Shown: piece by piece, positions 16,304 to 54,837 of the stretch
Numbering within the stretch: position 1 is the first letter of the stretch
Layout: the number at the start of each line of letters is the position of its first letter
Origin: an uncultured Rhizobium sp.
Lineage (GTDB): Bacteria > Pseudomonadota > Alphaproteobacteria > ATCC43930 > CGMCC-115725
Reading direction: 5' to 3'
NCBI GenBank assembly: GCA_964392845.1
Contig: CAYMRQ010000002.1
Span: 1 to 61,495 of the forward strand
Length of the DNA stretch: 61,495 nucleotides
The notes under the pieces: model-generated
What the model saw: only the letters and a program-made list of their open reading frames with translations
Told to the model about the DNA's origin: nothing
Databases searched by the model: none
Program-made: the position numbers and the translations under genes

Positions 16304-16319
16304 CAGATCGAGGTCAGAC

Positions 16320-16601
16320 ATGAACGACAGAGGGAGCCTGGAATGGGAGGCAGAATTCGTGGAGGCTGGAGCGGCCCTAGAGCATGAGCGGTGGGCACGT
16401 TGGCAATCTTATCTATTTAGTAGGTGTACCCAAAACCAAGATGGCTCGCTCACTATAAGTCGCGAAGATGCAGAGCATTGGAAACGTCAACTCGCTACGC
16501 CCTATGAGGATTTATCCGATGCGGAAAAAGAGAGCGATCGAAAGGAAAGCAGGTTATATCTGCCTCTTGTGAGGGCAGCGCTATCACGTGCGCGAGATTA
16601 G
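16320..16601 (+). CDS. Small hypothetical protein with a weak RyR-domain-like motif
   Basis: First gene of the lower-GC islet. LEHERWARWQSY ... ATPYEDLSDAEKESDRKES resembles the E-x-W-A / P-Y-x-x-L-x-x-x-E-K-x-x-D-R pattern of bacterial RyR-like domains. Confidence 0.5.
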   Translation: MNDRGSLEWEAEFVEAGAALEHERWARWQSYLFSRCTQNQDGSLTISREDAEHWKRQLATPYEDLSDAEKESDRKESRLYLPLVRAALSRARD

Positions 16602-16614
16602 AAATATTCGAGGG

Positions 16615-17601: not shown

Positions 17602-17604
17602 GCG

Positions 17605-17994
17605 TCACCGAGCGCCGCCGATTAGGCTTTTGAGGTTATCCCATGCCCATCTGTATAGCTTGTCGCTTGTCTTTGCGGCCGTGGGTTTAGTGCAACTCTT
17701 GTCTGCATACCCCTTTAGGAGAAAATAAGGAACCTTCTCTTCCTGCGCGATTTTAACCTCGGCGCTCACACCGGCGGCTGTGTGCGTGTGCTGCCCGCAC
17801 AAGACGGCAACGACATCGACAGACCTGATGCGGGTGCGTGCCTTCTTTTTCCAATCCTCGGAAATTGCTTCCTTTATCGACCAATCAGCCAACTCGAATG
17901 GGCTATCCGAATGCTTTGCTTGGCCAACCAAAAGATGCTTCAAGCTTTCGTCGTGATCGTAGTCGAAGCTTACAAAGACGCGGCTCTTAGCCAT
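17605..17994 (-). CDS. TIR-like domain protein (DUF1863 / ThsB-like)
   Basis: 129 aa from ATG 17994 with a GAAGGAG RBS. SRVFVSFDYDHDESLK ... VVAVLCGQHTHTAAGVSAEVKIAQEEKVPYFLL matches the MTH538 TIR-like pattern, including a candidate catalytic Glu. Its stop is 3 nt before the caspase start. Confidence 0.75.
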   Translation of the reverse strand: MAKSRVFVSFDYDHDESLKHLLVGQAKHSDSPFELADWSIKEAISEDWKKKARTRIRSVDVVAVLCGQHTHTAAGVSAEVKIAQEEKVPYFLLKGYADKSCTKPTAAKTSDKLYRWAWDNLKSLIGGAR

Positions 17995-18259
17995 AGGGGG
18001 AACTCCTTCGAATCGACACGCTCTTAGATGATGCAGCAGTCCCGTGACCAATCCCAATCACGGGTGCCGTTGCGACCGTCCGGAACGCGAGCGATGCGGA
18101 TATTGCCCCCCAGCGTGTAGATGTCCAGCCCGCGACGCTTCGCCTCAGCAGCATGGCGTATGCTATTGATTTAAAAAAGCCTGAGCTCACGATGGTTAAT
18201 TTTTCCCCGGCTAATTCCCCCATCTGTCTCGAATTGCCGACGCTCGATTCGCAGCACGT

Positions 18260-18343
18260 TAGGATGGGCTGAACGGAGCGAAGCCCATCGCTGCGCGGCA
18301 GCCGACCGGGGTGATGGGCTTCGCTCCGTTCAGCCCATCCTAC
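18260..18343. repeat. Palindromic REP-like element, family E
   Basis: taggatgggctgaacggagcgaagcccatc ... gatgggcttcgctccgttcagcccatccta. The arms are near-perfect at about 30 bp. Confidence 0.85.
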
Positions 18344-18587
18344 GAAGCCATGCCTCGGGACAAAGAGGGAGGCGCGACACGAAACCGCGCCGCTAAATTT
18401 GCCACATTCATGTGGTAGTGTCGGTTTGTCATGGATCGGGGCGAGGGTGGCAATTCAACAAAAACGGGAATTCGACCTGATCCTGGCCTGATACATCAGG
18501 AATGCCGTTGCGCTTACTAAACTCCAGATTGCAAACGCCTAAGGCGCTCAGGCTTCCGGCGCTGACGATGTGATCGAATGATTTTTG

Positions 18588-18672
18588 TTGTCATGCCGGC
18601 GAAGGCCGGTATCCACTGATCCGCGGCACGAGCGGCCGAGGGGTGGGTCCCGGCCTCCGCCGGGACGACGAA
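18588..18672. repeat. REP-like element, family A (two hairpins)
   Basis: gtcatgccggcgaaggccggtatc ... ggtcccggcctccgccgggacgac. Confidence 0.8.
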
Positions 18673-18690
18673 TGGATTGAGGACCGAGCC

Positions 18691-19956
18691 ATGAAGCTGA
18701 TGTGGTTCCATTTGATGCCCTATACCGAGCTGCCCGACGATTTTCGGGAGAAGCATCCGTCGGTGTGGGTCGACGTTCATTCCTCGCTGTTCGACCCGCG
18801 GCGGGCGCATCACATGTACAACGACTTCATGGACGAACTCGAATTCGCCGCCGAATGCGGGTTCGACGCGGTTTGCGTCAACGAGCATCACTCGAACGGC
18901 TATGGCCTGATGCCATCGCCCAACCTGATCGCGAGCGCCCTGTCGCGCCGCACCACCGACACGGCGATCTGCGTCATGGGGAATTCGCTGGCGCTCTACA
19001 ACCCGCCGACCCGGGTCGCCGAGGAATTCGCGATGATCGACGTGATCTCGGGCGGGCGCCTCATTGCCGGGTTCCCGGTCGGCACGCCGATGGACACCTG
19101 CTTTGCCTATGGCCAGAACCCGTCGATGCTGCGCGAGCGCTATCTTGAAGCGCACGGCCTGGTCATGCGCGCCTGGCAGGAGCCGGACACCTTTGCCTTC
19201 AACGGCCGCTTCAACCAGCAGCGCTATGTCAACATCTGGCCGCGCCCCATACAGAAGCCGCACCCGCCGGTGTGGATCCCCGGCGGCGGCTCGGTCGAGA
19301 CCTGGCAGTGGTGCGCGCAGATGGACTACGTCTATGCCTATCTCTCCTATTTCGGCTACAAGGACGGACGGGCGACGATGCACGGCTTCTGGGACGAGAT
19401 GGCGCGGCTCGGCAAGGACAAGAACCCGTACCGTGCCGGCTTCCTGCAATTTGTCGGGGTCGCCGAGACACGCGAGCAGGCGATGGAATTGTATCGCGAG
19501 CCGGCCGAATATTTCTATGGCCGCTGCCTCAGGGTGGACCCGAAGTGGGCGGTGCCGCCGGGCTATATCACCGAGGCGACGCAGCGCGCCGGCATCGTCG
19601 GCCAGATCGGCCGCGCCGCCAGCCTCGACGCGAGGCAAAAGGCGCGGGCGACGACCCAGATGGAGGACATCGTCGAGCGCGGCTATGTGATCATCGGCTC
19701 GCCCGACGAAGTCGTCGAGCAGCTGACCACCGTCGCGACCGACCTCAATGTCGGCCATCTGATGATGCTCTTGCAGTTCGGTAACATGGGCAAAGACCTC
19801 GCCAAGTACAACACCAAGCTCTTCGCCGAAAAGGTCATGCCGCGGCTCAGCAATCTGTTCTCCGAGTGGGAGGACAGATGGTGGCCGGCGCCGATGCCGC
19901 GGGCCGAACGGGCCGAGCCGGCCGCGTTCACCGCGGGCGCGATCGCGGCGGAGTAG
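18691..19956 (+). CDS. LLM-class flavin-dependent oxidoreductase (long form)
   Basis: MKLMWFHLMPYTELPDDF...GFDAVCVNEHHSNGYGLMPSPNL. Start taken at ATG 18691, because the upstream part of the ORF lies in the REP element. Confidence 0.85.
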   Translation: MKLMWFHLMPYTELPDDFREKHPSVWVDVHSSLFDPRRAHHMYNDFMDELEFAAECGFDAVCVNEHHSNGYGLMPSPNLIASALSRRTTDTAICVMGNSLALYNPPTRVAEEFAMIDVISGGRLIAGFPVGTPMDTCFAYGQNPSMLRERYLEAHGLVMRAWQEPDTFAFNGRFNQQRYVNIWPRPIQKPHPPVWIPGGGSVETWQWCAQMDYVYAYLSYFGYKDGRATMHGFWDEMARLGKDKNPYRAGFLQFVGVAETREQAMELYREPAEYFYGRCLRVDPKWAVPPGYITEATQRAGIVGQIGRAASLDARQKARATTQMEDIVERGYVIIGSPDEVVEQLTTVATDLNVGHLMMLLQFGNMGKDLAKYNTKLFAEKVMPRLSNLFSEWEDRWWPAPMPRAERAEPAAFTAGAIAAE

Positions 19957-21949: not shown

Positions 21950-22112
21950 TTTCCGATCCTCACTCTGCGGCGTTGCCGACGATACTCCGGCGCGGCCCGG
22001 CTCAGCAACGCGCGAGGATTTGTGGTCGCGGCTCAGTTTGTGTAGCAAATCGACCCCAACGGCTCTATCTCCCGGATCAAACCACAGACGAACCCAGCTG
22101 AGTCGACATGCT

Positions 22113-22202
22113 GGATGGGTGGCCGAGCGGTTGAAGGCACCGGTCTTGAAAACCGGCAGGGGTGCAAGCTCCTCGTGGGTTCGAATCCCACCCCATCCGC
22201 CA
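22113..22202 (+). tRNA. tRNA-Ser (anticodon UGA)
   Basis: A cloverleaf folds by hand. Acceptor GGATGGG/CCCATCC, D-arm GCCGAGCGGTTGAAGGC, anticodon stem CCGGT/ACCGG with loop CT-TGA-AA, a long variable arm, T-arm GTGGG-TTCGAAT-CCCAC, discriminator G and an encoded CCA. Confidence 0.93.
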
Positions 22203-22301
22203 TCTCTTGACGCGGGAGCGGATGCGCAGGCATGGTCTGGATCGCTGTGTGCCGATATGCCTCGATCGGGCGCGGCGATCGCCTTGCTAGGGAGAACAGA
22301 T

Positions 22302-22652
22302 ATGCGCAACCTGATGCTTGTTGGCGCATTTGCCCTTTTGCTTCTGTCACCATTGACCGCTTCCGCGCAACAGAGGGCGGCGCCGGCGCCGGCGCCGGCG
22401 ATTCCGTCGACCATTGAGGGGGTACCCATCGCCAAGGTGCTGGCGATCGCGATTGGCGTCCTCGCCGGGGCGGTGGCGGTGGAGGCGATTGCCGGCGGCG
22501 AAGTGGTCGCCGTGGTCGGCGGTGCTGCGGGCGGCCTGCTCGCGGCGTGGTGGTACGACCATTCGAATGGCGGTTCGGCCCGGGCGGCGATGCGCGAGCC
22601 GGCTGGGGCGCCCGCCCTCGCCCGCGCCGAGCGCCTCGCATTGGCCCGGTGA
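22302..22652 (+). CDS. Small secreted/membrane glycine-zipper protein, GGxxxxWWY family (member 1)
   Basis: Signal peptide MRNLMLVGAFALLLLSPLTASAQ. Gly/Ala zipper GVLAGAVAVEAIAGGEVVAVVGGAAGGLLAAWWYD. A GGGAGAA RBS precedes the start. Confidence 0.65.
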   Translation: MRNLMLVGAFALLLLSPLTASAQQRAAPAPAPAIPSTIEGVPIAKVLAIAIGVLAGAVAVEAIAGGEVVAVVGGAAGGLLAAWWYDHSNGGSARAAMREPAGAPALARAERLALAR

Positions 22653-22880
22653 GGCCGGGTGAGGGCTTGGCGTCGGGCGCCGACGGCCAGCGGCGCGCCG
22701 GGATCGGGGGCACCGTCGCGTAGGCCGATGCCTCCCCCGCGCCGATCGCCAGGCGGTGCCGAGCATTCTGGCGCCGGCGGTTTGCATCGATAATCCGCAA
22801 AGGGGTGATCTCGGCGCCGCCACGGCAACGCAACGGCAAGCTGATGCGGTTCGATTGACGGTCATCGGCGGAGCAACTTC

Positions 22881-23516
22881 TTGAAGTGCCTGCTCGTCCT
22901 TGTCGGCATTCTGATCGTGGCGACCGGCCCGCTCGTCGCGGCGCCCAATGATGGCTCCGACGCTCAAGCGAACGATTTCATGGCGACGCTGCGATCGTAT
23001 ACGGCCTCGATCGAGGCGGGTGTTTCGGTCGCATTGGAGAGCATGAGACCGTCGGCGGAAGGCGGTATCGGCACCATCGACGCCTTGATCGGCGATGCGT
23101 ATTACTATGGCCACGGCGTGTCGCGGGACTACACGGCGGCGGCCCGCTGGTACCGCCGCGCGGCAGAAAACTCCAATGCGATGGCGCAGAGCACGCTGGG
23201 CGATATCTATTATTACGGGCGCGGCGTCCCGCAAGATTTTGTCGAGGCCGGGCAATGGTGGCAGCTCGCGGCCGCGCAAGGGATGGCGGTGGCGCAGCTC
23301 AACCTCGGTGTCATGTACGCCAATGGCGACGGCGTCCCACAGGATTACGTCAAGGCGCACTTTTATACCAACCTCGCGGCCGCCCGCCTGCCGCCCGGCC
23401 AAGATCGCGACATCGCTGTCAAAAATCGCGAGATTGTCGGGAAGTTGATGAGCGCGGCGCAAATTGCCGAGGCGCAGCACCTGGCACGTGATTGGCGTCC
23501 GAAATCGCCGCAATAG
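22881..23516 (+). CDS. Sel1-repeat (SLR) protein with signal peptide (paralog 1)
   Basis: TTG start with a GGAG RBS. Repeats of A-x-x-x-LG-x-x-Y-x-x-G-x-GV-x-x-D (DAYYYGHGVSRDY, DIYYYGRGVPQDF, VMYANGDGVPQDY). The C-terminus is shared with the protein at 29095-29706. Confidence 0.85.
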   Translation: MKCLLVLVGILIVATGPLVAAPNDGSDAQANDFMATLRSYTASIEAGVSVALESMRPSAEGGIGTIDALIGDAYYYGHGVSRDYTAAARWYRRAAENSNAMAQSTLGDIYYYGRGVPQDFVEAGQWWQLAAAQGMAVAQLNLGVMYANGDGVPQDYVKAHFYTNLAAARLPPGQDRDIAVKNREIVGKLMSAAQIAEAQHLARDWRPKSPQ

Positions 23517-23617
23517 CCGCCGCGCCCGGGAGCGGAAGGTTCGGCGGTGATCGATCCCGAGGAGGTTAGCGATATAGCCGTCAATCTCGCCCGGCAAAGC
23601 GGCCGCGGCGCACCGGT

Positions 23618-25009
23618 TTGCCCGGTTCAATGACCACCGGCCCCGAGCGACGCGGCGTTCCGGCGGCGCGGATCGCCGCGGTGTGCGGAGCGCATCCTGC
23701 GCTGGTGTCGGTCGTGGCAGCGTTGGCCCTGGCGGCAGCGGCGGCGGGCGGCTACATCACTCATGCGACGATGTCGCAGCCGGCACCCGCCACAACGGCC
23801 GGCGCGCCGATCATCCAGCCTGGCATCGGGTCTCGCCCGGCCGAGAGCGACGCCAAGGTCCGCGATACCGTCGTCTGGCGCGACGAGGCGGGAGCCGTAT
23901 ACCGCGCCAAGGTCGGCGACGGGCGCCTCGACCAGTTTCTGCGCCAGCGCAAGGCGGTCCTTGAGACGGCCCGGACCGAGTCGCGCGAGCAGTCCGCCGC
24001 CGAAATCCTGGCGGCGCTCAAGCCCGTCTTCGCCGATATGACGGCGCGCGTGCCGGGTTATGCCGATTGGTATTTCGGTTACACAACGAAGTACGAATTG
24101 ATGGGCCACGCCGTCTTTCCGGCACTCGACTATCTGCTCCGCAGCCTCGATTTTTCCTCCCGTCCGGACAAGAGCCTGGCCCAAACGGTAGGGCCTCATG
24201 TGGTCGCGTATCTCGCGGAGCAATATGCCGAACGGGTGGTGCGGCCGCGCGAGGCGGAAATTCGGCTCCGGGCTGCGTTCGACAAATCCCATGACGCGGT
24301 GCAGGCGCATTGGCGACGCCTTGTCGACGAAGAGCGCGCGGCGATGCGGGCGTTCATCAAGGAACAGGCCGGCTCGGCCGAGCGCCTTTCGGCCGATCAG
24401 GCGGCTGGAATCGAACTTGACTGGGACGGGAGCCGTGAGCACGGTTCTGCCGTCCCGGAGGAACGCATGGTCGATCAGACCTTTCAGCGAGGATTGCTGT
24501 CGGTCACACTGAAGATCCCGAAGTCGGCCAAAGCATCGGCCCCGCCCGCCGGCGGTGAAAAAACACCGGAGGAAACCGATGAAATCACCCATGTCATCGT
24601 CGATCTTTTCAACAAGCTGATCGAGCCCGTGGTGTCGCGGATGAGCGATTTGGCGCTCGGCGTCTTCGCCGGCAGCGCCGCCGGCGGGACAGCCGCCGGG
24701 TTCGGGATGGCTCGCGGGTTCGGAATGGCTGGCGGGTTTGGCCCACCGGCCGGGTTCGCGACGGGCGTTGCGACGGGCGTCGCCACCGCGGTCCCGATCG
24801 GCGCCGCAATCGGTCTCGCGGCGACGGTTGCTGCAGAGATGTTGACCAATCGGCTGGAGGAGTCGCTGAACCGCGGCGAATTCGAGAAGGAAATAAAGCA
24901 GACCGTGGACGCTACGGAGAATGCCGTCGAAACCGGGATGATCGCGGCTCTCCACGAGCACGTCGAGGGGTGGTACGCCGACATCGTCAACCCGGTTGCG
25001 GTCAAATGA
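23618..25009 (+). CDS. Uncharacterised membrane protein, ~460-aa family (paralog 1)
   Basis: It has an N-terminal TM, then the conserved block VVWRDEAGAVYRA...RVPGYADWYFGY, and a C-terminal Gly-rich hydrophobic segment followed by an amphipathic tail. It is colinear with the protein at 27137-28525. Confidence 0.7.
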   Translation: MPGSMTTGPERRGVPAARIAAVCGAHPALVSVVAALALAAAAAGGYITHATMSQPAPATTAGAPIIQPGIGSRPAESDAKVRDTVVWRDEAGAVYRAKVGDGRLDQFLRQRKAVLETARTESREQSAAEILAALKPVFADMTARVPGYADWYFGYTTKYELMGHAVFPALDYLLRSLDFSSRPDKSLAQTVGPHVVAYLAEQYAERVVRPREAEIRLRAAFDKSHDAVQAHWRRLVDEERAAMRAFIKEQAGSAERLSADQAAGIELDWDGSREHGSAVPEERMVDQTFQRGLLSVTLKIPKSAKASAPPAGGEKTPEETDEITHVIVDLFNKLIEPVVSRMSDLALGVFAGSAAGGTAAGFGMARGFGMAGGFGPPAGFATGVATGVATAVPIGAAIGLAATVAAEMLTNRLEESLNRGEFEKEIKQTVDATENAVETGMIAALHEHVEGWYADIVNPVAVK

Positions 25010-25265
25010 AGCCCGGCAAGTGAGGCCCGGCGGCTGTCCGTCGGCCGCAACGCCAACGCCGTCGAGCCGGCAGCCGGTCGGCTGATCAGGTCGGGTGGCG
25101 GCCACCACGCGGCCACCAAAAAGCCGTTGGTAACGGGCCGGTAGATGCGCTAGCATTTTCTATAGTGCGGATAGCCGGCGTCCCCCTTTGGCCGTAGATG
25201 CAGCTGGTTGTGGCACGATGGTTTGTCGGAAAATTTTGGTGCCTTTCGCCCCATAGGGAAAGCCG

Positions 25266-25913
25266 ATGCGCAGACTCCTTTGCGTTGCCGCCGTTGCGCT
25301 GGTCGCTGTCGTCCCGGCGGCCAGTCATGCTCAAACGCCTGCGCCACCGCCGAGTTCGGGTGGTCTGACCGGTGGGCAAATCGTTGCCCTGGCGATCGTT
25401 GCCGCCGCCGCCGCTGCCGTCGCGTGGTACGCGGTGGCCGGCACGGCCGCGGTCACCGCCGGCGCGGCTGCGCCCGTGGGGCTCGGTGAACTGGGGGCTG
25501 GTGCCGGTGGTATGGCGGCTTTCGAATCGGCCGCAATGCCAGCCGCCGCTCGGGCCGCAGCGGCAGCCGAGATGGCGGCCGCCAGGGCGGCCGCTGCTGA
25601 TGCAGCGTCGGGCGCCGTCGGTGGCTCCAGTCACTTCGCCGGAATGCGCTTGGCCGGCGGAGGCGCTGGCCGGATGGCCGCCGCCGGTGAGCAGGGCGCC
25701 GCTGCCGAAGGCACTGCTCATGGTGCCGCTGTCGCCGGCGCCGCCGAGGTACCGGCAGCGGCGGCTGGCGACGCCGCCATGCCAGCCGGTGCCGGCGGCC
25801 CGCGGATGGCCGGAATGCACATGGCCGCTGACGGCGCCCCGATGGAGGCCGCACCCGGTGGCGCGGGCTTTATGGGTATGTTCGGCAGGATGCGTGGCGC
25901 CGCCATCGACTGA
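25266..25913 (+). CDS. Ala/Gly/Met-rich low-complexity secreted protein
   Basis: Signal peptide MRRLLCVAAVALVAVVPAASHAQ and a TM-like IVALAIVAAAAAAVAWYAV. The rest is about 60% Ala/Gly with a Met-rich tail (PRMAGMHMAADGAPMEAAPGGAGFMGMFGRM). All six frames are open here, so the frame choice rests on the signal peptide and an AGGGAA RBS. Confidence 0.45.
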   Translation: MRRLLCVAAVALVAVVPAASHAQTPAPPPSSGGLTGGQIVALAIVAAAAAAVAWYAVAGTAAVTAGAAAPVGLGELGAGAGGMAAFESAAMPAAARAAAAAEMAAARAAAADAASGAVGGSSHFAGMRLAGGGAGRMAAAGEQGAAAEGTAHGAAVAGAAEVPAAAAGDAAMPAGAGGPRMAGMHMAADGAPMEAAPGGAGFMGMFGRMRGAAID

Positions 25914-26079
25914 ATGGCCGCATTGGACTGAAAAGCCTGCGGTATTGAGTCGGGCGGGCTGGCATAGCGATTTCGGGCGGCTTCTGTCGACCGCCCGGGG
26001 TGAGCCGGATGCGCCACCGCCGGGGCGGTTAATTGCCGTCTGGCCGGATGACGCAGACCGCATCAGGAGGATAAGTCCG

Positions 26080-26373
26080 GTGCGAAAACTGTTGTTAGCC
26101 GCAATCATATCAATAAGCGCGATCGGACCGATGGCCGCCCATGCCGGCGAGAAGCTGACCCTCGTTCAACAGGGCGTGCCCGCGGCGATCGCAGGCCTTG
26201 ACCGCAACAAGGCGCTGGCGATCGGCGCCGGCATCGCCATTGGTGCGACCGCCGGATCGGCACTCTCGATGCGCGGGGCGATCATCGCCGGTGCCGTGGC
26301 GGGTGGCCTTCTCGGCGCCTGGTGGTACGGCGAGCGTTCGGAGTTCGCGACCCTTGAGCCACGCAAGAAATAG
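26080..26373 (+). CDS. Small glycine-zipper protein, GGxxxxWWY family (member 2)
   Basis: GTG start 8 nt after AGGAGG. Signal VRKLLLAAIISISAIGPMAAHA, then zipper AIGAGIAIGATAGS...AIIAGAVAGGLLGAWWYGE. Confidence 0.65.
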   Translation: MRKLLLAAIISISAIGPMAAHAGEKLTLVQQGVPAAIAGLDRNKALAIGAGIAIGATAGSALSMRGAIIAGAVAGGLLGAWWYGERSEFATLEPRKK

Positions 26374-26478
26374 AGCGGGTATGTCGGTCGGGGAATGTTT
26401 CCTGGCGATGGCGGCGCGGATCCGCCAGACACGAAATCGGCGGTAACCTCGGACGTGCGGCGGCGGGCGTCTCGCCGG

Positions 26479-26883
26479 ATGCGGGCACTGCTTGGCGTTG
26501 CCTTGGCCGCCGCCCTCTGGGCGTCGCCCGCCGCGACGTTTGCCGGTGAGGGGATGATGCCCGCCGACGAACCGGAAGATACGCTCGTTTTCGGCCTCAC
26601 GGCGACGCAGCTCGCGCTCGCTGCCGCTGTCGGAGCGGGCGCCGGGTTGGCGGGAGCGGTTGCCTCGGGCAATGTAATCGCTGGCGCGTCATTGGGGTTC
26701 GGCACGCTGGCGGCGATCTACGTCGCCCACCTGGCCGCCGAGGCTGTCTTGGTCGGCGGCATCTATTATTGGTGGCCCTGGGAGGCGTGGCCCTGGGAGG
26801 CGGACTCCGAATCCCCCACCTCGCGCCCCATCGCGATCAGGCGCGCGGGCGAGGCTGAGGCACGATCCCGAACCCTTCGCTGA
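26479..26883 (+). CDS. Small secreted/membrane protein with Gly/Ala zipper and a Trp-rich tail
   Basis: MRALLGVALAAALWASPAATFA signal. AAAVGAGAGLAGAVASGNVIAGASLGFG, then GGIYYWWPWEAWPWEA. The start is uncertain (the ORF opens at 26395). Confidence 0.5.
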   Translation: MRALLGVALAAALWASPAATFAGEGMMPADEPEDTLVFGLTATQLALAAAVGAGAGLAGAVASGNVIAGASLGFGTLAAIYVAHLAAEAVLVGGIYYWWPWEAWPWEADSESPTSRPIAIRRAGEAEARSRTLR

Positions 26884-27136
26884 TACCCGAGGCGCGCTTC
26901 GATCCGTCGACGACCTAGCCGCTGCCGGACGTGGGCTTCCCCGACACGAGATCGTTGCAGTGCTCGCTTGCGGCTCCGGGTCGCCATCCTAGGTCAGATC
27001 GATGCACGATCAAATTGGTGTCGAGCAGCCCGCTTGCGGCGGGAGTTTGCGGGCGCCCGGCGCGACGCCGTCACAGTTTTTGATCGAAGGGACCCGAGCC
27101 GCGGTCTGAAGATCGCGGGACTCCGCAATTATCCCC

Positions 27137-28525
27137 TTGGGGCCGCGCCGATTGGCTAGAATACGGAGGTCCAGCGACATAAGGGCCGACCGGTCCCCGG
27201 AGTCTCGCTTGCCGGAAGAGAACGAACCGAACATCAGGCCCGCTCGATCGGTTCTTCGCTTGTGGCCGGCGGCGGCTCGGTCACCCTGGGTGTGGCTGTT
27301 TTGTGTCGGGGTGGCGATGGGGGTCGTTGGCTTGCTGGTTGCCAGCTTGCCCTACCTGCCATGGGAACCGCCACCATCGGCAAATCGCCGAGCGGCAGCG
27401 CCGACATCCGCACCACCGCCTCCGATTGCCGCGCCCGCCGCGCCGGCCGCGGCAGCGGCAGGTGCCTCGCACACGATCGTCGCCTGGCGCGATGGCGAGG
27501 GAGCGCTGCGCCGAGCGGGCACCGACAGCGCGCGGTACGAGGAGTTTGTCGCGGCCGCGCGCCACCAGATCGACGAGGACCAGCGATCGCTGCTGGTGGC
27601 GCGAAGCAACCGGCTGCGCGCCGGATTGGCCCCGCTCTTCGAGCAGATCGACGAGCGGGTCTCAGGTTACGCCGACTGGGTGTTCGACTGGTGGACGAGT
27701 TGGATCCTCCTGGCCCGTACATTCGGGTGGACATGGGATGGCTTGACGACGGGTCCGGTGCTGACCCTGCCCGACAGAGTCCAGGCACAACTCGTTGCCG
27801 CCGTGCAGGAGCAGTTTATCGGGCGGGTCCTGGAGCCGGGTGAGCTCGAACCGAAGATCGACGCCGCCCTGCGTGGCGCACTCGTCGCGATGCGCGAAGA
27901 TCTGCTCGGCAACTGTGCAAAATATCAGCAGTCCTTCACCGGCTTCATCCGGAGCCAGGCACGAAAAGTCGAACGCCATGATCCGGCACAAGGGTGGATT
28001 CCCGATCCGTCGTGGGAGCGTAGCGCGGCCACTTTTCGACCGCTTTGCGATGGGATTGGAGCCATCGACGAAAGAGCGATGCGCGCCCAGTTCCCGGTCC
28101 TGCTCGAACTGAAAACCGCCGACAGCCCGGTCAATGACGTGATCTTGCGTCTGGCACGCCCATTCGCGACAAAGCTGATCAGCTTCGTGGTGTTGCCGGT
28201 GATCGTCGCCGCGATCCTCGGCGGCATCCTGCTGCCGCTGTTCGGCCAGTTGCCCGGCGTGCTGGCGAACGTCATTACCGGTGTCCTTACCGGCGCCGTC
28301 GGCGCGCTGATCATTGGCCTAGCCGCGAGCGCATCGATTGATTGGGTGCTGAACCGAACCGACGCGACGCTGAACCGCGCCGGCTTCGAGGCGAGTGTCC
28401 GCAAGGCGATAATCGCGACGGAACGCAGTTTCGAGACCCGAGTGCTCGACGCCCAGGAGGGTCCGCTCAAGCGGCAGATCGAGGCACTGGCGACGGCCAT
28501 GGCCGGCAAAATTGCCGCGCCGTAA
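27137..28525 (+). CDS. Uncharacterised membrane protein, ~460-aa family (paralog 2)
   Basis: It has the same architecture as 23618-25009: IVAWRDGEGALRRA...RVSGYADWVFDWW, a C-terminal hydrophobic Gly-rich segment, and the tail NRAGFEASVRKAIIATERSFE. The start codon is uncertain. Confidence 0.7.
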   Translation: MGPRRLARIRRSSDIRADRSPESRLPEENEPNIRPARSVLRLWPAAARSPWVWLFCVGVAMGVVGLLVASLPYLPWEPPPSANRRAAAPTSAPPPPIAAPAAPAAAAAGASHTIVAWRDGEGALRRAGTDSARYEEFVAAARHQIDEDQRSLLVARSNRLRAGLAPLFEQIDERVSGYADWVFDWWTSWILLARTFGWTWDGLTTGPVLTLPDRVQAQLVAAVQEQFIGRVLEPGELEPKIDAALRGALVAMREDLLGNCAKYQQSFTGFIRSQARKVERHDPAQGWIPDPSWERSAATFRPLCDGIGAIDERAMRAQFPVLLELKTADSPVNDVILRLARPFATKLISFVVLPVIVAAILGGILLPLFGQLPGVLANVITGVLTGAVGALIIGLAASASIDWVLNRTDATLNRAGFEASVRKAIIATERSFETRVLDAQEGPLKRQIEALATAMAGKIAAP

Positions 28526-28582
28526 ACGGCCCGGACCAAGGCGCAGCGGCCGCCTCAGCCCAATGCGCCAGGGCGCGCAGGC

Positions 28583-28951
28583 TCAATCCGCAGCCGCCGA
28601 GAATGCCGCGGTGTGCAATCCGGTCTGGCTCCTGCCGGGGTCGCCGATCAATTGGAACGATGGCGCCGGAGTGTCGGCGTAACGCATTTTCATTTTGCCC
28701 CCTGGCATCATTCCGTCGCGGCTCGTGGCGGCCATATACCACCACTCACCGATCGCGCCTCCGGCGACGACACCGATCACGGTCGCCGGGACACCGGTAA
28801 GATAATAATAGCCTACGGCGCCACCGACCGCGGCACCAGCGATCGTTGCGGCCACGGCGCCCACAGTCAGCCCACTCTCTTGCGCCGGCGCTTCGCGCGG
28901 AGCGGCGCCGATCAGCGCAAGGGCAACGGCGGCAACAGCCAAGCTTTTCAT
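28583..28951 (-). CDS. Small glycine-zipper protein, GGxxxxWWY family (member 3)
   Basis: An AAGGAGGG RBS precedes the start. MKSLAVAAVALALIGAAPREAPAQ signal, then GAVAATIAGAAVGGAVGYYY...VVAGGAIGEWWYMA. A Met-rich patch follows (DGMMPGGKMKM). Confidence 0.65.
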   Translation of the reverse strand: MKSLAVAAVALALIGAAPREAPAQESGLTVGAVAATIAGAAVGGAVGYYYLTGVPATVIGVVAGGAIGEWWYMAATSRDGMMPGGKMKMRYADTPAPSFQLIGDPGRSQTGLHTAAFSAAAD

Positions 28952-29094
28952 CGGAGCCCTCCTTTGACGCAGCGAGCGCGATCGATCTAACACAGATGCT
29001 CCGCGATGATCAAACGCCGATGATGCGAGCGGACAAGCGAAGCGTCGAGACAAAGCCGATGGAGGCCCTCGCGCGGCCAACCGGGCTCTTCAGG

Positions 29095-29706
29095 CTAGCG
29101 ATCCTCGCTCGGCGCCCAATTGCGGGCAGCCATCTGCGCGTCTGCGATTTGCGCGGCGGTCATGTTCGCCCCGACCGACTCGCGCAGCTTCGCCACGGCG
29201 TTACGGGGCTCCCCCGGCGGCAATCTGGATGCGGCCAGGTTGAGCCACAAATGCGCGGCAACCAGATCCCGCGTCACGCCGACCCCGTTCATGTAAAGCA
29301 AGCCGAGGCGGTATTGCGCCACCGGCACGCCGCGATCGGCGGCCATGCGATACCACCGCGCGGCTTCGCCCGTGTCCTGGGTTACCCCGATGCCCCATTC
29401 ATAGCAGGCGCCAAGCTGATATTGCGCCAGGCCAACCCCAGCCATCGCAGCTTTGCGCAGCCACTTCAAGCCTTCCGCACTATCGCGAGAAACCCCCTCT
29501 CCGGAAAAATACATTCGCCCCAACGCGTATTGCGCCGCCGGCGCGCCGCCGGCAGCGGCGGGGCCGAGTTCGCGATAGGCGGTTGCATAATCACCCCGGT
29601 CATAGGCAGCCAGGCCGTCATCCAGGCCGGCAAATGCCGGCGCTGTCAGCCCGATCGCGATCAGACCGCCGAGCACCAAGCCCCGCGTTGTCGTCGGCTT
29701 CGTCAT
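29095..29706 (-). CDS. Sel1-repeat (SLR) protein with signal peptide (paralog 2)
   Basis: MTKPTTTRGLVLGGLIAIGLTAPAFA signal. Sel1 repeats RMYFSGEGVSRDS, ACYEWGIGVTQDT, LLYMNGVGVTRDL. The C-terminus NLAASRLPPGE...MTAAQIADAQ..AR.W parallels 22881-23516. Confidence 0.85.
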   Translation of the reverse strand: MTKPTTTRGLVLGGLIAIGLTAPAFAGLDDGLAAYDRGDYATAYRELGPAAAGGAPAAQYALGRMYFSGEGVSRDSAEGLKWLRKAAMAGVGLAQYQLGACYEWGIGVTQDTGEAARWYRMAADRGVPVAQYRLGLLYMNGVGVTRDLVAAHLWLNLAASRLPPGEPRNAVAKLRESVGANMTAAQIADAQMAARNWAPSEDR

Positions 29707-29741: not shown

Positions 29742-30521
29742 TCAACCGGCGTAACCATCCTTGCCGCGCCCGATCCCCAGCGCACCGGCCAGGTCGATCG
29801 GCAACGGAAACACGATCGTCGAACTCTTGTCTCCGGCGATGCTCTGCAGCGCAAGGAGGGAGCGCAACTGCATCGCCTGGGGCCATCCGGCCAGGATCTC
29901 GCCCGCCTGCCGCAACCGATCGGCGGCTTGCAGCTCACCCTCCGCGTCGATCACCTTGGCGCGCCGGTTTCGCTCGGCCTCCGCCTGGCGGGCGATCGCG
30001 CGGATCATGGTTTCGTTAAGATCGACGTTCTTGATCTCGACATTGAGCACCCTGATCCCCCATGAATGGTAATGCTCGTCGAGGATCGACAGGATGTTGT
30101 CGTTGATCTGTTTGCGTTCGGCCAGCATGGCGTCGAGATCGTGTTCGCCGAGAACCGAGCGCAGCGTGGTTTGGGCGAGCTGGCTGGTCGCATCTTCGAA
30201 ATCCTCGACCTGGAGGATCGCCTCATCGGGCCGGCTGACGCGGTAGTAAATGACGGCGCTCACTTTGACCGACACATTATCGCGCGAGATGACATCCTGA
30301 ACCGGCACGGGAAGGACCCGGACCCGCAGATCGACCCGCACCGCGTTCTGCAGCAGCGGCACGATGAAGACCAGGCCAGGTCCCTTGACCCCGGTGAACC
30401 GGCCGAGGGTGAACACCACAAAGCGCTCGTACTCGCGTAACGCCGAGATCGCCAAATATGCGATGCCGAGGACCAGCCCGCCGGCGAGCACGATCACAAA
30501 GGCGCTGTTGGTGCTAAACAT
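29742..30521 (-). CDS. SPFH/band-7 (stomatin-like, slipin) protein
   Basis: N-terminal TM then VPVQDVISRDNVSVKVSAVIYYRV...TLRSVLGEHDLDAMLAER...WGIRVLNVEIKNVDL...ARQAEAERNRRAKVIDAEGE. Confidence 0.88.
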   Translation of the reverse strand: MFSTNSAFVIVLAGGLVLGIAYLAISALREYERFVVFTLGRFTGVKGPGLVFIVPLLQNAVRVDLRVRVLPVPVQDVISRDNVSVKVSAVIYYRVSRPDEAILQVEDFEDATSQLAQTTLRSVLGEHDLDAMLAERKQINDNILSILDEHYHSWGIRVLNVEIKNVDLNETMIRAIARQAEAERNRRAKVIDAEGELQAADRLRQAGEILAGWPQAMQLRSLLALQSIAGDKSSTIVFPLPIDLAGALGIGRGKDGYAG

Positions 30522-30585: not shown

Positions 30586-31203
30586 TCATGGTCGCAAGGC
30601 GTGCTTTGCCCGCCCCCGATAGTATTGGAACATCACGGCAGCCAGCGCGATGGTCCAGAAATTCAACAGGTACAGCGTCCACAACAACAAGCAAACGGCG
30701 TAGATCGTGAGATAGGCCACGAACGCCGCCAGCGCCAAACTGAGGAGCGCCGCACGCCGCGCCATTCCCCCGTGCCAAAAAAGAAAAGGGGCCGCAACCG
30801 CCGCCACCAACAGCGCGGTCACGATGCTGATCAGGACCAGAAAGGTGGCGGTTGCCACGTTGCCGGCCGGGTCGTCGACCAGGGTGCCGATGCCGTAGTT
30901 CAACGGATTGGCACGATCACCCAGAAACTGCCAGAGCGACAGGTTCCACGGGCTTTCCGGAACGAACAGCGCGTTCAGATCGAAATAGCGCCGGTCAAAG
31001 CGAGCGTAAATCAGGGCGACTCCGAGCGCTATCCCCAGCAATTTGGCGACCGCGGTAACGAGCGGAACCTCGAAAAAATCGTCGGGAAGCACTCTCCGCT
31101 TGATGCGGCCGGCCAGCTTGATGGCGACGATCGGGAGCGCTACGACGAGCGCTATCTCAAGCGCGGCGCGGGCGATGGCAACAAGGCCGCCAATATCGCT
31201 CAT
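30586..31203 (-). CDS. Multi-pass membrane protein, uncharacterised
   Basis: 205 aa with 5-6 hydrophobic segments. No motif recognised. Confidence 0.55.
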   Translation of the reverse strand: MSDIGGLVAIARAALEIALVVALPIVAIKLAGRIKRRVLPDDFFEVPLVTAVAKLLGIALGVALIYARFDRRYFDLNALFVPESPWNLSLWQFLGDRANPLNYGIGTLVDDPAGNVATATFLVLISIVTALLVAAVAAPFLFWHGGMARRAALLSLALAAFVAYLTIYAVCLLLWTLYLLNFWTIALAAVMFQYYRGRAKHALRP

Positions 31204-31369: not shown

Positions 31370-34300
31370 CTAATAGGCTTCCGATCCCAACCCGGTTTCG
31401 TGCTGCTCGGCGAGCGCGCGCAGCGGCTTCTCGCCGAACCGCAAGAACAGGACAGGCGTCAGCACGGCATCCAATAGCGTGGCGCCGATCAACCCACCGA
31501 AGATCACCAGGGCGACGGGCGACAGGATTTCCTTCCCCGGCTGGTCACCGTTGAGCATCAGGGGGATCAGCGCGCAGCCGGCCGAGAGAGTCGTCATCAA
31601 TACCGGCGTCATGCGTTCGAGGCTGCCGCGCACGATCATCGCGCGCCCGAAAGTCTCGCCTTCATTGAGGACCAGATTGATGTAGTGGCTGATCTTGAGA
31701 ATGCCGTTGCGCGTGCTGATGCCGGCCAGGGTGATGAAGCCGATCATCGTCGCCAGCGACAACGTCCCACCGGCGAGCCACAGACCCAGGACGCTGCCGA
31801 TCAGCGCCAGCGGCACGTTGAAGATGACGATCAGGGCCAGCGCCGTCGAGTTGTAGCGCGTATAAAGAATTGCGAAAATCAGCATCAGCGAGACCAGCGA
31901 CAGCACCGCGATCCGCTTGGTCGCCGCCTGCTGCGCGGCATAATTACCCTCGACACTGACAAAGTAGCCGGCAGGGAGGCTCATCCGGGCGGCCTGCTGC
32001 TCGATCCCGCGGGCGATCGCCGCCATATCGGTGCCGTCGGTGTTGGCGAGGATCGCAACGCGCCGCAAGCCGTTGTCGCGGACGATCTGGTTGGGCCCGT
32101 CGCTGTCCCGGATATCGGCAAGCTGCTGCAACGGCACGTGGCCGAACGGCGTATCGATCAGCAAGAGGCGCAGCGCATCGCTCGTTCGATCGGCGTCATC
32201 GAGACGGATGAAGACGTCGTAGCGGCGGTTTTCGTCGACGACTTCGGAGGTAACCCGTCCGGCAGCGAGCGTCTCGAGCAGCCGCGTCAGCTGCGCCGAC
32301 GTGACCCCGTAGAGCCGTGCGGCATCGGGATCGATGCGGACGCGCAACTGCGGGATGCGGGCCTGAGTCTGAACCTTGAGGTCGGTCAGGCCCGGCACAT
32401 GGCCGAGCCGCCCACGCAGACCTTCGGCCAATTTCCCCAGCGTATCCAGATCGGGCCCGTAGACCTTGACCGCGAGTTGCGAGGGCAGACCGGTCATCAG
32501 GAGATTGAGTCTGTGGGTCAGCGGCTGGCCAATATGCAGCGCGCCAGGCATCCCGCTCAAATGATCGCGAATGTCCTGCAACACCACCGACAGCTTGCGT
32601 TGCGACGACCGTAAATCGACGTCGATATTGGTCTCGTAGATGCCGTCGGCATGCAGATCGAGCTCCGCACGCCCGGTGCGCCGAGCGACCGACTGGACCT
32701 CGGGAACCCCGAGCAGCAGCTTCTCCGCCGCCGCGCCCATGCGGTTCGACTGGATCAGCGAGATACCGGGACGGTACGTCAACTCGATCATGTACATGCC
32801 TTCGTTGAGCGGCGGCAGGAACGCGCGCGGCAGATAGCTCACGGTGACCGCGGCAACGACTACCCCGGCCAGCGCCGTCGCGATCAGGCCCGGCTGGTGT
32901 TCGAACGCCCAATTCAACAGCCGCGCGTTCTGTCGCTTCAACCAGGCGATCAGCGCGGAATCGCCATGGCGCATCTGCTTCATCTGCGGCAGCAGGTAAT
33001 AGGCGAGGACCGGCGTCAGGGTGATCGAGGTGATCAGACTGGCAAAAATCGATACGATATACGTGATGGCGAGCGGCGCGAACATGAGTCCTTCGATCCC
33101 GGGAAGCGCAAACAGGGGAAAGAAGACCAGAAGAACGATCAGCGTCGCATAGAAGATGCCGGAGCGCACTTCGACGGTGGCGTCGGCGATGACCCGCAGG
33201 GCCGGCAGCGGCTCTGCCAGCGCGCGATTGAGGCGCAGCCGGCGAAAGGTGTTTTCGACCCCGACCACGGCATCGTCGACCAGTTCGCCGGTCGCGATTG
33301 CCAAGCCGCCAAGGGTCATCGTGTTGATCGTCAGGCCGCCGAGCCAAAAGACCAGTATGGTGATGCAGATCGAGATCGGGATCGCGGTCAGCGAAATCAC
33401 CGTCGTGCGGAAGTTGAGCAGGAAGGCGAACAGCACTACGGCGACCACCGCCGCCGACTCGAGCAGCACGCGCTGCAGAGTGGCAATCGAATGCTCGATA
33501 AACTTCGCCTGCTCGAAGACGATCTTGTCGGCGCGGATGCCCTGCGGGAAGAACGGGCGCATCTCGACGAGCGCCTGCTCGACCCGCCGAGTCAATGCCA
33601 GGGTGTTGACCCCGGGCTGCTTGTGAACGCGCAGCTGCACCGCGGGTTTGCCCATGAGCCCGGCGTCACCCTGCTTGACGCGCGGTTCGAAGCCTACCCC
33701 GGCCAGCTGCCGCAGCAGGACCGGCCGTCCGTCGCGATATGCCACCACCAGGTCGCGCGCGCCTGCGATCACAGCCTCGGGCTCGCGGGTCCGGCCGAGG
33801 TTCATGATCAGGAACCGGCGGCCATATTGGTCGACCGAATCGCCACCGGTATTGGTGTTGTAAGCGGTCAAGGCCTGCTCGAGCTGGTCGACCGTCACAT
33901 TGAGAAAATCGAGCTTGCGCGGGTCGGGGGTGATGCGCAATTGGCGCACGTCGCCGCCCATCGGCAGCACCTGCGAGATGCCCGGGATGGCCATCAGCCG
34001 GGGCCGTAAATACCAGTCGGAAAAATCGCGCAACGCCATCATGTCGCCGGTATCGGAGGTCATGGCGATAATCAGGATCTCGCCCATCACCGAGGATATC
34101 GGCGCCATCTCGGGCGTCACATTGTTGGGCAGCATCTCCCGCGCCTGAGCAAGCCTTTCGGCGACCAGCTGCCGGTTGCGATAGGTGTCGGTGCCGAGCT
34201 CGAAATCGACGTTGACGATCGAGAGGCTCGAACTTGAGATTGAGCGCACGCGCGCGACGCTATTGAGCCCCGACATCGATGTCTCGATCGGGAAGGTGAC

Positions 34301-34492
34301 GCGCCGCTCAATCTCCTCGGGTGCCAGCCCCTCGCCTTCGGTGATGATCGAAACGGTAGAGCGGTCGATTTCCGGCAGGACGTCGACCGGCACCCGCTGC
34401 AGCCCGAGTGCGCCGCCAATGAATAAGAGGCCGGTGCCGCACAGGATTAAAACCCGGTGCGACAGACTCCGGCGGATCAAATATGCGAACAT
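31370..34492 (-). CDS. CusA/CzcA-family (HME-like) RND efflux permease, paralog 1
   Basis: 1040 aa. MFAYLIRRSL...VDVLPEI..., a 12-TM RND layout and the TM4 motif GGLAIATGELVDDAVVGVEN. It is co-linear with CusA/CzcA. Confidence 0.9.
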   Translation of the reverse strand: MFAYLIRRSLSHRVLILCGTGLLFIGGALGLQRVPVDVLPEIDRSTVSIITEGEGLAPEEIERRVTFPIETSMSGLNSVARVRSISSSSLSIVNVDFELGTDTYRNRQLVAERLAQAREMLPNNVTPEMAPISSVMGEILIIAMTSDTGDMMALRDFSDWYLRPRLMAIPGISQVLPMGGDVRQLRITPDPRKLDFLNVTVDQLEQALTAYNTNTGGDSVDQYGRRFLIMNLGRTREPEAVIAGARDLVVAYRDGRPVLLRQLAGVGFEPRVKQGDAGLMGKPAVQLRVHKQPGVNTLALTRRVEQALVEMRPFFPQGIRADKIVFEQAKFIEHSIATLQRVLLESAAVVAVVLFAFLLNFRTTVISLTAIPISICITILVFWLGGLTINTMTLGGLAIATGELVDDAVVGVENTFRRLRLNRALAEPLPALRVIADATVEVRSGIFYATLIVLLVFFPLFALPGIEGLMFAPLAITYIVSIFASLITSITLTPVLAYYLLPQMKQMRHGDSALIAWLKRQNARLLNWAFEHQPGLIATALAGVVVAAVTVSYLPRAFLPPLNEGMYMIELTYRPGISLIQSNRMGAAAEKLLLGVPEVQSVARRTGRAELDLHADGIYETNIDVDLRSSQRKLSVVLQDIRDHLSGMPGALHIGQPLTHRLNLLMTGLPSQLAVKVYGPDLDTLGKLAEGLRGRLGHVPGLTDLKVQTQARIPQLRVRIDPDAARLYGVTSAQLTRLLETLAAGRVTSEVVDENRRYDVFIRLDDADRTSDALRLLLIDTPFGHVPLQQLADIRDSDGPNQIVRDNGLRRVAILANTDGTDMAAIARGIEQQAARMSLPAGYFVSVEGNYAAQQAATKRIAVLSLVSLMLIFAILYTRYNSTALALIVIFNVPLALIGSVLGLWLAGGTLSLATMIGFITLAGISTRNGILKISHYINLVLNEGETFGRAMIVRGSLERMTPVLMTTLSAGCALIPLMLNGDQPGKEILSPVALVIFGGLIGATLLDAVLTPVLFLRFGEKPLRALAEQHETGLGSEAY

Positions 34493-43878: not shown

Positions 43879-43977
43879 CTCGCCTATCTCTACCGCGATC
43901 GAAACGCGACCGAACGCATGTTCAGGTGGTTCAACGGTTTCGGGCGTATTGCCACCCGATATGAGCGCGAAGCCTAA
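43879..43977 (+). mobile_element. IS5-family (DDE) transposase C-terminal remnant
   Basis: It translates to LAYLYRDRNATERMFRWFNGFGRIATRYEREA*. The Y-x-x-RN-x-x-ER-x-F-x-x-x-K-x-F-R-R-IATRY-[DE] block is the conserved end of IS5/IS427-group transposases. No upstream part or inverted repeats are visible. Confidence 0.7.
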
Positions 43978-48889: not shown

Positions 48890-49116
48890 GTCACTGATCC
48901 CGGCAGCCTTGGACCGCCCAAGCCGCGTCGCGTCGCTGCTGGCTTATCGGCAGCGACCTCGGTCACGCAGCAACGCAACCATAGCCAATCACAACGATGA
49001 GTTAAATACGGTTCACGCGACAACCGGCGCCGTGCACCTGCGGAAAACCGCGCCGGCACGGCTTGATGGCCGCCTTCCACCGCCTCAGCCGAGATCGTCA
49101 AAGCGCACGACGGCGA

Positions 49117-54773: not shown

Positions 54774-54837
54774 CGATCAGAATACCCAGGCAGTGGAGCG
54801 GCGGTCGACGTTATCGCCGGCTCGGTCAGATCGAAAT

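Follow-up and report, generated by a model that had tools for sequence, protein, structure and literature searches.

In MICOS (Mic60 and Mic10) and in the alphaproteobacterial Mic60/Orf52, an inner-membrane protein anchored at its N-terminus holds its bulk in the periplasm or intermembrane space, accompanied by small Gly-rich two-helix membrane proteins and by partners of the tetratricopeptide-repeat (TPR) or Sel1 type. Systems of the cop/pco and Cus/Czc types are marked by CusA/CzcA-type RND pumps, multicopper oxidases, CopC and CopD. Exported Sel1-repeat adaptors such as MerG, ExoR, MotX and AlgK carry a signal peptide and 3–4 Sel1 repeats, and the SlyB/Pcp-type proteins of the Gly-zipper_Omp (PF13488) and Rick_17kDa_Anti (PF05433) families are small, exported and built around a GxxxG-type zipper core of ~40 residues. 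In Rhodospirillales, mitofilin-domain paralogs and TPR proteins have been recruited to specialised membrane structures (10.1101/2022.06.14.496148), and glycine-zipper 2TM proteins are among the most induced genes during copper shock in Erwinia amylovora (PMC12542790). Here we describe a locus with features of all these systems in a stretch of 61,495 nt (the window) of contig CAYMRQ010000002.1 from an uncultured Rhizobium sp. Its core genes encode glycine-zipper mini-proteins (WWY), exported Sel1-repeat proteins (Sel1) and membrane-anchored proteins of ~450 aa (Big). As a whole the system matches nothing described, and it is conserved in soil alphaproteobacteria.

The region belongs to a chromosomal envelope locus that is conserved in Stellaceae-like Rhodospirillales and carries the core trio twice. 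The original prediction had seen two paralogous three-gene modules next to a tRNA gene and proposed an uncharacterised, duplicated envelope system. This was right in substance, but the system extends over a larger conserved locus, and the adjacency to the tRNA gene is meaningless. The two modules are parts of one conserved locus of about 13 genes that also includes an SPFH protein, a 205-aa membrane protein and a CusA/CzcA-type RND pump. All nine open reading frames (ORFs) first proposed are present where they had been placed. Two convergent gene strings make up the locus: seven plus-strand genes in the order WWY1-Sel1-1-Big1-GA215-WWYb-WW162-Big2, and, beyond a 57-nt gap after Big2, a minus-strand string that reads from its head RND adaptor (MFP), RND pump, 205-aa membrane protein, SPFH, Sel1-2 and WWY2. 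The features are as follows.

22113–22202, plus strand: tRNA-Ser(UGA), detected by ARAGORN and Rfam (tRNA, 61 bits); a neighbour outside the system
22302–22652, plus strand: WWY1, 116 aa, predicted Sec-exported glycine-zipper mini-protein (orthologs, family alignment, hhalign)
22881–23516, plus strand: Sel1-1, 211 aa, predicted exported protein with three Sel1 repeats (Pfam PF08238, E=7.5e-26)
23618–25009, plus strand: Big1, ~450-aa family (54 close homologs, AF2, hydropathy)
25266–25913, plus strand: GA215 (N-terminus and Met-rich tail recurring in orthologs)
26080–26373, plus strand: WWYb, 97 aa, third mini-protein of the WWY family (profile comparison, alignment)
26395–26883, plus strand: WW162, predicted exported Gly-zipper protein ending in YYWWPWE (ortholog conservation)
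27137–28525, plus strand: Big2, paralog of Big1 (BLASTP, ortholog N-termini)
28583–28951, minus strand: WWY2, 122 aa, whose longer C-terminal tail includes GKMKM (orthologs, hhalign)
29095–29706, minus strand: Sel1-2, 203 aa, predicted exported Sel1-repeat protein (Pfam PF08238, E=6.8e-33)
29742–30521, minus strand: SPFH/Band-7 membrane scaffold protein (Pfam PF01145, E=2.3e-39), directly upstream of Sel1-2 with a 35-nt gap
30586–31203, minus strand: polytopic membrane protein of 205 aa without domain match, conserved between the RND pump and SPFH
31370–34492, minus strand: CusA/CzcA-family RND transporter (TIGR00914, 714 bits; Pfam ACR_tran)
34499–36583, minus strand: RND adaptor ORF, heading the minus-strand string together with the pump
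54357–59958: distant partner block (DUF6524, mitofilin-domain protein, DUF6524, 129-aa protein, MlaA-like lipoprotein, 153-aa and 378-aa proteins)

Some of these genes appear to start further downstream than listed. Big1 probably begins at ATG 23630, yielding 459 aa and matching the gene call of the sequence collection. Big2 probably begins at TTG 27209 and has 438 rather than 462 aa, because a GGAG lies 7 nt upstream and the N-termini of its orthologs begin there. WWYb uses a GTG at 26080 with AGGAGG 8 nt upstream, and the start of WW162 is likely ATG 26479. In a scan of regulatory signals no sigma-70-like promoter was found, and terminator-like matches stayed at background (9 vs 6.5 expected). 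Rfam returned no element besides the tRNA-Ser; a sub-threshold match to the small RNA sX4 (22101–22257, plus strand; 34.9 bits, gathering score 70) overlaps this tRNA gene and is probably spurious.

The paralogy between the two modules, as first proposed from shared motifs, holds for the large proteins (BLASTP 26% identity over 363 aa, E=3e-24), in which WRD..GA..RA, RV.GYADW and the Gly-rich C-terminal stretch are aligned. It holds as well for the Sel1 proteins, whose alignment spans 140 aa at 49% identity (E=7e-44) and covers the C-terminal motif noted at the outset. The WWY proteins gave just a 15-aa pairwise match (E=6e-4), yet belong to one family by profile comparison, with hhalign probabilities, on alignments built from orthologs, of 99.3% for WWY1/WWYb, 96.9% for WWYb/WWY2 and 95.5% for WWY1/WWY2. 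The window thus has three WWY genes, not two: the three Gly/Ala-rich proteins reported between the modules are real and conserved, but one of them, WWYb, is itself a WWY paralog. The set is indeed duplicated and rearranged; however, it consists of ancient paralogs within one larger locus and not of a recent duplication. A rough neighbour-joining (NJ) tree places Big1 and Big2 in two different deep clades, and no DNA-level repeat exists between the modules, hence the duplication is old. A repeat scan likewise gave no signal of recent duplication.

For an overview of conservation, 26 window proteins and other neighbour proteins were mapped onto 70 fetched loci (numbered L001 onwards). Co-location was counted in the 35 non-redundant loci that hold a Big gene with at least 3 kb of flank (33–82% identity), with a partner scored within 6 kb. 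A WWY-family gene lies near Big in 30 of these 35 loci, and WWY together with Sel1 in 26, so that the three-gene signature recurs in other genomes. WW162 was found in 17 loci, a multicopper oxidase in 13, an AlgE-like barrel in 11, SPFH and the 205-aa membrane protein in 10 each, and DUF6524 in eight.

The arrangement of the window is collinear gene for gene, at 62–92% identity, with L024 and L025, which carry two extra inserts. The first, made up of a CsbD-like gene and a multicopper oxidase, separates WW162 from Big2, and the second, an AlgE-like beta-barrel, separates Big2 from WWY2; at these sites the window has gaps of 325 and 57 nt. The window is a reduced variant of the locus, without multicopper oxidase and AlgE-like barrel. 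Inserts in the closest relatives (L024 13558–15601, L025 7687–9727, L026–L034 and L036) were either lost from the window or never there. Orthologs of SPFH occupy the same position at 69–95% identity, the 205-aa membrane protein also occurs in the locus of an Azospirillum metagenome-assembled genome (MAG; L018), and the RND pump is kept in the same position in L008, L013, L014, L025, L026, L030, L032 and L052.

Module 2 does not form a single transcription unit: the plus-strand string closes with Big2, and the minus-strand string that converges on it closes with Sel1-2 and WWY2. In Rhodospirillales MAGs from Lake Baikal (42–46% identity), Big2 is located between WWY2 and Sel1-2 on the opposite strand, beside the membrane protein and the RND pump, and module 2 is therefore a conserved neighbourhood, though no operon. 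Looking at deeper lineages (33–37% identity), Sel1, WWYb, WW162 and Big are followed directly by DUF6524 (minus strand), DUF6524 (plus strand), the 129-aa protein and the MlaA-like protein.

Judged by sequence, Big is a family of ~450-aa proteins that matches no described family and has no significant fold match. Big1 and Big2 have no match in Pfam, NCBIfam, PADLOC or PDB sequences, the latter with single-protein as well as profile queries, and no Pfam domain recurs among 98 diverse members. The statement that none of the large or small proteins has an assignable domain was thereby borne out, no match in the large or WWY proteins reaching a family threshold. Among all cluster proteins scanned against Pfam, NCBIfam and PADLOC, Sel1 and SPFH alone were detected. 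A profile search of 1.84 billion cluster representatives yielded 483 members at E≤1e-3, of which 291 also reached E≤1e-10, and a word-indexed search with the 98-sequence profile added almost no new members. No match was obtained by tblastn with an Azospirillum-type Big member against 72,556 plasmids. Close homologs all stem from metagenomes or MAGs and, where named, belong to Stellaceae, Rhodospirillales or Alphaproteobacteria. One apparent GTPase fusion (P0132, 386 aa), which joins 130 CysN/EF-Tu-like residues to the C-terminal half of a Big2 ortholog, was set aside as most likely an assembly chimera on a 1.7-kb contig.

Both Big proteins are predicted by hydropathy to have a single N-terminal transmembrane (TM) segment. 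Across the Big sequences (family A1), the mean number of Lys and Arg residues is 2.7 ahead of this segment and 1.35 behind it, and the count ahead is the higher one in 81% of sequences; given this positive-inside bias at the anchor, the bulk of the protein should face the periplasm. AlphaFold models from 37- and 98-sequence alignments agree on a beta-hairpin (residues 84–98), a long helical bundle (103–250) and a small beta-sheet, followed by a helix, a Gly-rich hydrophobic hairpin of low confidence and, at the C-terminus, a long conserved helix; the pLDDT exceeds 90 over residues 84–250. Foldseek searches of the PDB with two models gave a best E-value of 0.36 and TM-scores ≤0.25, the hits being generic helical bundles, with ClyA, a bacterial dynamin-like protein (BDLP) and designed bundles as the best non-significant matches. 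The Big2 family has two invariant Cys residues (C260, C304) in the predicted periplasmic part. In the wider family no Cys, His or Met column is conserved, which speaks against an enzyme or a direct metal site.

The envelope location first suggested for these proteins agrees with the N-terminal membrane anchor predicted for both large proteins and with signal-peptide-like N-termini on all seven small and Sel1 proteins, where by hydropathy a hydrophobic segment precedes a cleavage motif of the A-x-A (signal peptidase I, SPase-I) type. WWY1 has a predicted signal peptide ending ASA|QQ and a core of the form GxxxG...GG..WWY. Its orthologs in L001, L002, L005, L010 and L024 share 40–71% identity, those of WWY2 37–77%, and WWYb represents the WWY subfamily that occurs in more related loci than any other, with identities down to 36–43%. 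In an alignment of 19 WWY sequences, G52, G56, G77, G78, W84 and Y85 are invariant. These small proteins resemble the SlyB/Pcp type in size, predicted export and zipper core. They differ from it in having an invariant WWY motif after the zipper and SPase-I-type signals, and the lipobox Cys of that type is lacking: the 19 aligned proteins have A-x-A motifs and no conserved Cys. The window WWY proteins have no Pfam match to PF13488, PF05433 or PF13441 at E≤0.1, the GxxxG zipper being visible in the alignment; five, three and one of the 19 members gave sub-threshold matches to these families, respectively (best E=0.0014), and an NCBIfam match to the YiaD glycine zipper occurred among the small proteins at E=0.02. 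The scores lie far below the cut-offs of the known glycine-zipper families, from which WWY also differs in that its genes always occur together with Sel1 and the 450-aa protein.

WW162 (orthologs at 44–75% identity) is built like WWY, with a predicted signal peptide, a Gly zipper and the aromatic YYWWPWE, yet forms a separate family (hhalign 27–64%). GA215 combines a predicted signal peptide, one TM segment (GLTGGQIVALAIV..AWY), an Ala/Gly-rich low-complexity spacer and a Met/Gly-rich C-terminal tail. In its orthologs the N-terminal 40–55 aa are 54–82% conserved, the spacer ranges from 129 to 381 aa with Ala/Pro/Glu-rich repeats such as AAEPAAAAAAAP, and the Met-rich tail recurs. Sel1-1 and Sel1-2 pass Pfam PF08238 with 90.1 and 112.4 bits (cut-off 30.7) and three repeats each; their orthologs share 47–82% and 46–85% identity, respectively. 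They resemble the exported Sel1-repeat adaptors only as proteins of the Sel1-repeat type, with MerG, aligned almost from end to end (E=8e-20 and 1e-18), as their top NCBIfam match. Their scores of 71.7 and 68.1 bits, however, lie far below the equivalog cut-off of 350 for MerG (NF033786), the ExoR, MotX and AlgK models are also far below cut-off, and mer, exoS/chvI, flagellar or alginate genes are not adjacent to Sel1.

From this context we tentatively propose that Big, Sel1 and WWY form a non-enzymatic, periplasm-facing envelope scaffold tied to copper or metal stress and to outer-membrane upkeep. Big would be an inner-membrane protein with a cytoplasmic N-terminus, a long periplasmic helical bundle and a Gly-rich hydrophobic hairpin dipping back into a membrane. 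Sec-exported Sel1 adaptors may bridge the Big bundles to oligomers of the glycine-zipper peptides, and a membrane-anchored protein of the GA215 type, with its Ala/Gly-rich spacer and Met-rich tail, would accompany the trio. When copper or heavy metals stress the periplasm, such a complex might stabilise the envelope or reorganise it, acting beside SPFH and the CusA/CzcA-type pump and, in relatives, beside the multicopper oxidase and the MlaA-like outer-membrane lipid system. In the Stellaceae clade, a scaffold for envelope integrity could thus have been recruited to the copper and heavy-metal response.

The link to metals is suggested by the neighbouring genes, with the copper-induced glycine-zipper 2TM proteins of Erwinia amylovora (PMC12542790) as an analogy. 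As in the Cus/Czc systems, an RND pump passing the CusA/CzcA model (TIGR00914, 714.2 bits; cut-off 701.45) belongs to the same gene string. In common with periplasmic copper and heavy-metal systems, orthologous loci encode CopC, CopD, DUF2946 and a CDF transporter besides a multicopper oxidase. In L004, L007, L009, L010, L023, L024–L034 and L036, WW162 and Big are separated by the orthologous multicopper oxidase; these loci include all 11 close metagenome relatives with upstream sequence (L025–L034, L036). Downstream of Big2, L004 and L007 encode CopC and a CopD-cytochrome c fusion, and DUF2946 and the CDF transporter occur in L023. The Met-rich tails of GA215 orthologs are reminiscent of Met motifs that bind Cu(I), and a small protein of 168 aa encoded next to the cluster carries MPAMPGMPGMGNMQAMPGM (MPGMPGM). 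A cop/pco locus, defined by a multicopper oxidase (CopA/PcoA) with CopB/C/D, can be recognised in L004, L007, L023, L024 and others but not in the window. No Big, Sel1 or WWY protein belongs to any known cop, pco, cus or czc family. As separate observations, a second CusA/CzcA-like RND pump (38307–41426; 693 bits) falls just below the TIGR00914 cut-off, and an OprB-family porin (36872–38272) and a HupE/UreJ protein (42186–43424) lend a metal-transport flavour to the region between the cluster and the distant partner block.

Several findings weigh against this metal-linked scaffold. A tblastn search with the orthologous proteins found no multicopper oxidase, CopC or CopD in the window. The core proteins are predicted to lack conserved metal ligands, as they lack conserved catalytic residues, and the Met-rich low-complexity tails could just reflect the composition of a genome with 67% GC. 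The association with metal genes is confined to the Stellaceae-like clade (44–82% identity), while the deepest conserved neighbours of Big, in the loci of 33–37% identity, are DUF6524, the 129-aa and the MlaA-like proteins. Moreover, distant bacterial Big members (L019–L021) and one eukaryotic locus (L022) are isolated, with no Sel1 or WWY partners.

The strongest rival, doubtful in its own right, is a system for envelope architecture or lipid homeostasis that is unrelated to metals, in which Big, Sel1 and WWY would act with the MlaA-like, DUF6524, mitofilin-domain and SPFH proteins to build inner-outer membrane contact sites or to shape and keep up membrane domains, the metal genes being lineage-specific hitch-hikers. 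We consider it nearly as likely as the metal-linked scaffold because its neighbour genes are more deeply conserved. DUF6524, immediately downstream of Big, and the 129-aa and MlaA-like genes are the deepest neighbours in L006, L015, L054, L055, L058, L059 and L063–L065; the same genes also occur near Big in L002, L005, L010, L018, L042 and L051, and the window carries the DUF6524/MlaA-like set at 54.3–60 kb. The partner block as such abuts the WWY-Sel1-Big cluster in L002, L005, L006, L010, L015, L018, L042, L051, L054, L055, L058, L059 and L063–L065, and in the Azospirillum MAG the Big gene lies beside mitofilin-domain, MlaA-like, DUF6524 and TPR genes. The recruitment of mitofilin-domain paralogs and TPR proteins in Rhodospirillales (10.1101/2022.06.14.496148) also favours this alternative, as do the predicted topology, which with a periplasm-facing N-anchored protein and small Gly-rich hairpin proteins mirrors Mic60 and Mic10, and the extension of the Big family into eukaryotes, where members have presequence-like N-termini. 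TPR/Sel1-type partners and the linkage to mitofilin-domain genes in several genomes are further resemblances to MICOS.

Against it, the partner block lies 25 kb away from the cluster in the window, and in each of the 11 close metagenome relatives with upstream sequence a multicopper oxidase interrupts the locus midway, a pattern not readily put down to coincidence. Homology to MICOS is also lacking: an assignment of Big to Mic60/mitofilin (PF09731) was rejected as neither Big1, Big2 nor the 98 members gave a Pfam match, the hhalign probability to the mitofilin-domain proteins of the window was 0.1%, and Foldseek matches to the Mic60 helical bundle were non-significant (E about 2–4). Likewise, the WWY, WW162 and GA proteins have no Pfam match to Mic10 (PF04418), their zipper being of the GxxxG / GG..WWY type, and the Big locus is not at hemC/hemD, the site of the canonical alphaproteobacterial mic60. 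The literature search returned no paper mentioning DUF6524 and none combining Mic60, alphaproteobacteria and MlaA. We take the metal and the envelope/lipid neighbour sets to be compatible with each other.

Further genes of this kind occur elsewhere in the window. A mitofilin-domain protein of 413 aa (PF09731, E=3.7e-10; within 43974–45913, minus strand) lies directly downstream of a ParA/MinD-like ATPase (45212–45913); this pairing recurs in L018, from the Azospirillum MAG, and in part in L014, and there is no hemC/hemD locus there. In the block at 54357–59958, the mitofilin-domain protein has 269 aa and the MlaA-like lipoprotein is extended by 200 aa at its N-terminus. Two TPR paralogs in tandem (377 and 392 aa, 68% identical; 47756–50295, minus strand) have homologs beside the cluster in L005, L018, L038 and L051.

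Members of the Big family are also found under eukaryotic names, in the ichthyosporean Sphaeroforma arctica (XP_014155427), the dinoflagellates Yihiella and Gymnodinium, a Nitzschia diatom and an MMETSP transcript, and one further member lies on a metagenomic contig with the eukaryotic nuclear genes BCAS2, CNOT9 and DNA polymerase epsilon (in our collection, the eukaryotic members are P0172, P0238 (L022), P0247, P0258, P0267 and P0273). Big1 and the Sphaeroforma protein share 25% identity over the full length (E=5e-24) and are as similar to each other as Big1 is to Big2; no paper mentioning this accession was found in the literature search. The labelled eukaryotic sequences fall into one clade with about 15 unlabelled ones in the rough NJ tree, and the eukaryotic clade of ichthyosporeans, dinoflagellates, diatoms and the one metagenomic contig is apparently monophyletic, compatible with mitochondrial ancestry or a single transfer. 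Several members have Arg-rich, acid-poor N-termini resembling mitochondrial presequences. A bolder reading, to which we assign a low probability, is that the Big lineage is common to alphaproteobacteria and eukaryotes. The eukaryotic form would then probably reside in the mitochondrial inner membrane, oriented towards the intermembrane space, and the form in Rhodospirillales would be the core of a system organising the inner and outer membranes with Sel1, Mic10-like zippers, mitofilin-domain and MlaA-like proteins, a relative or functional forerunner of the mitochondrial contact-site machinery.

We regard as very improbable that the locus encodes a glycine-zipper bacteriocin or a pore-forming toxin set with immunity proteins, of the Caulobacter CdzC/CdzD or the ClyA type. 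In the Cdz system, small glycine-zipper proteins are reported to be the toxic agents (PMC5380434), which counts for this possibility, and the top Foldseek matches include the helical-bundle toxins ClyA, Hbl-B and AhlB. The elongated helical bundle with a hydrophobic hairpin is indeed shared with these toxins and with the stalk and paddle of dynamin-like proteins, yet the matches were non-significant (E 0.36–4, probability ≤0.23, TM-score ≤0.25). ClyA (E=0.36) and BDLP (E=0.63) were both rejected on this basis, and Big has no GTPase domain. Judged by gene content and signals, a Cdz-type system was dismissed as well, since no gene between 22.3 and 36.6 kb encodes an ABC_tran domain, hence no ABC exporter, and all zipper proteins have predicted Sec signal peptides rather than type-I secretion signals. 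The Big proteins are predicted to be membrane-anchored at the N-terminus, and stable chromosomal synteny with ordinary divergence across lineages is unlike polymorphic toxin loci. PADLOC gave no defence match at E≤0.01, the best being oMTase on Sel1-1 (E=0.03, 10.6 bits).

A horizontally acquired genomic island at tRNA-Ser is the least credible alternative: the cluster begins 100 nt after this gene and flanking genes vary among genomes, but the GC content of 0.64–0.70 equals that of the flanks, no integrase-like domain was detected among the scanned ORFs, no direct repeat flanks the cluster as an att site, and the locus is kept within one taxonomic group (Stellaceae, Rhodospirillales or unclassified alphaproteobacterial MAGs). 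The tRNA gene, to which significance had been attached, is absent from this position in 13 of the 14 related loci scanned and its presence is incidental; in the exception, L001, a different tRNA-Ser(GGA) lies about 5.5 kb upstream. Nor was the cluster seen at a tRNA-Ser gene outside this group of taxa. Apart from the locus, a low-GC patch at 16000–19000 (0.55–0.59 vs about 0.65), with a caspase/CHAT-like peptidase C14 ORF (16615–17601, minus strand), may be foreign DNA.

The Big family, with about 480 cluster representatives, is absent from Pfam, NCBIfam, PADLOC and PDB and lacks a significant fold match, although its core is confidently predicted. Its strongly conserved multi-gene envelope context offers two hypotheses, a role in periplasmic copper or metal stress and a role in the maintenance of outer-membrane lipids or contact sites. 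If the link to the eukaryotic proteins were true, Big would be a new member of the small set of envelope-organising proteins that were passed down from the mitochondrial ancestor, and the locus would provide a bacterial model in which to study this component.

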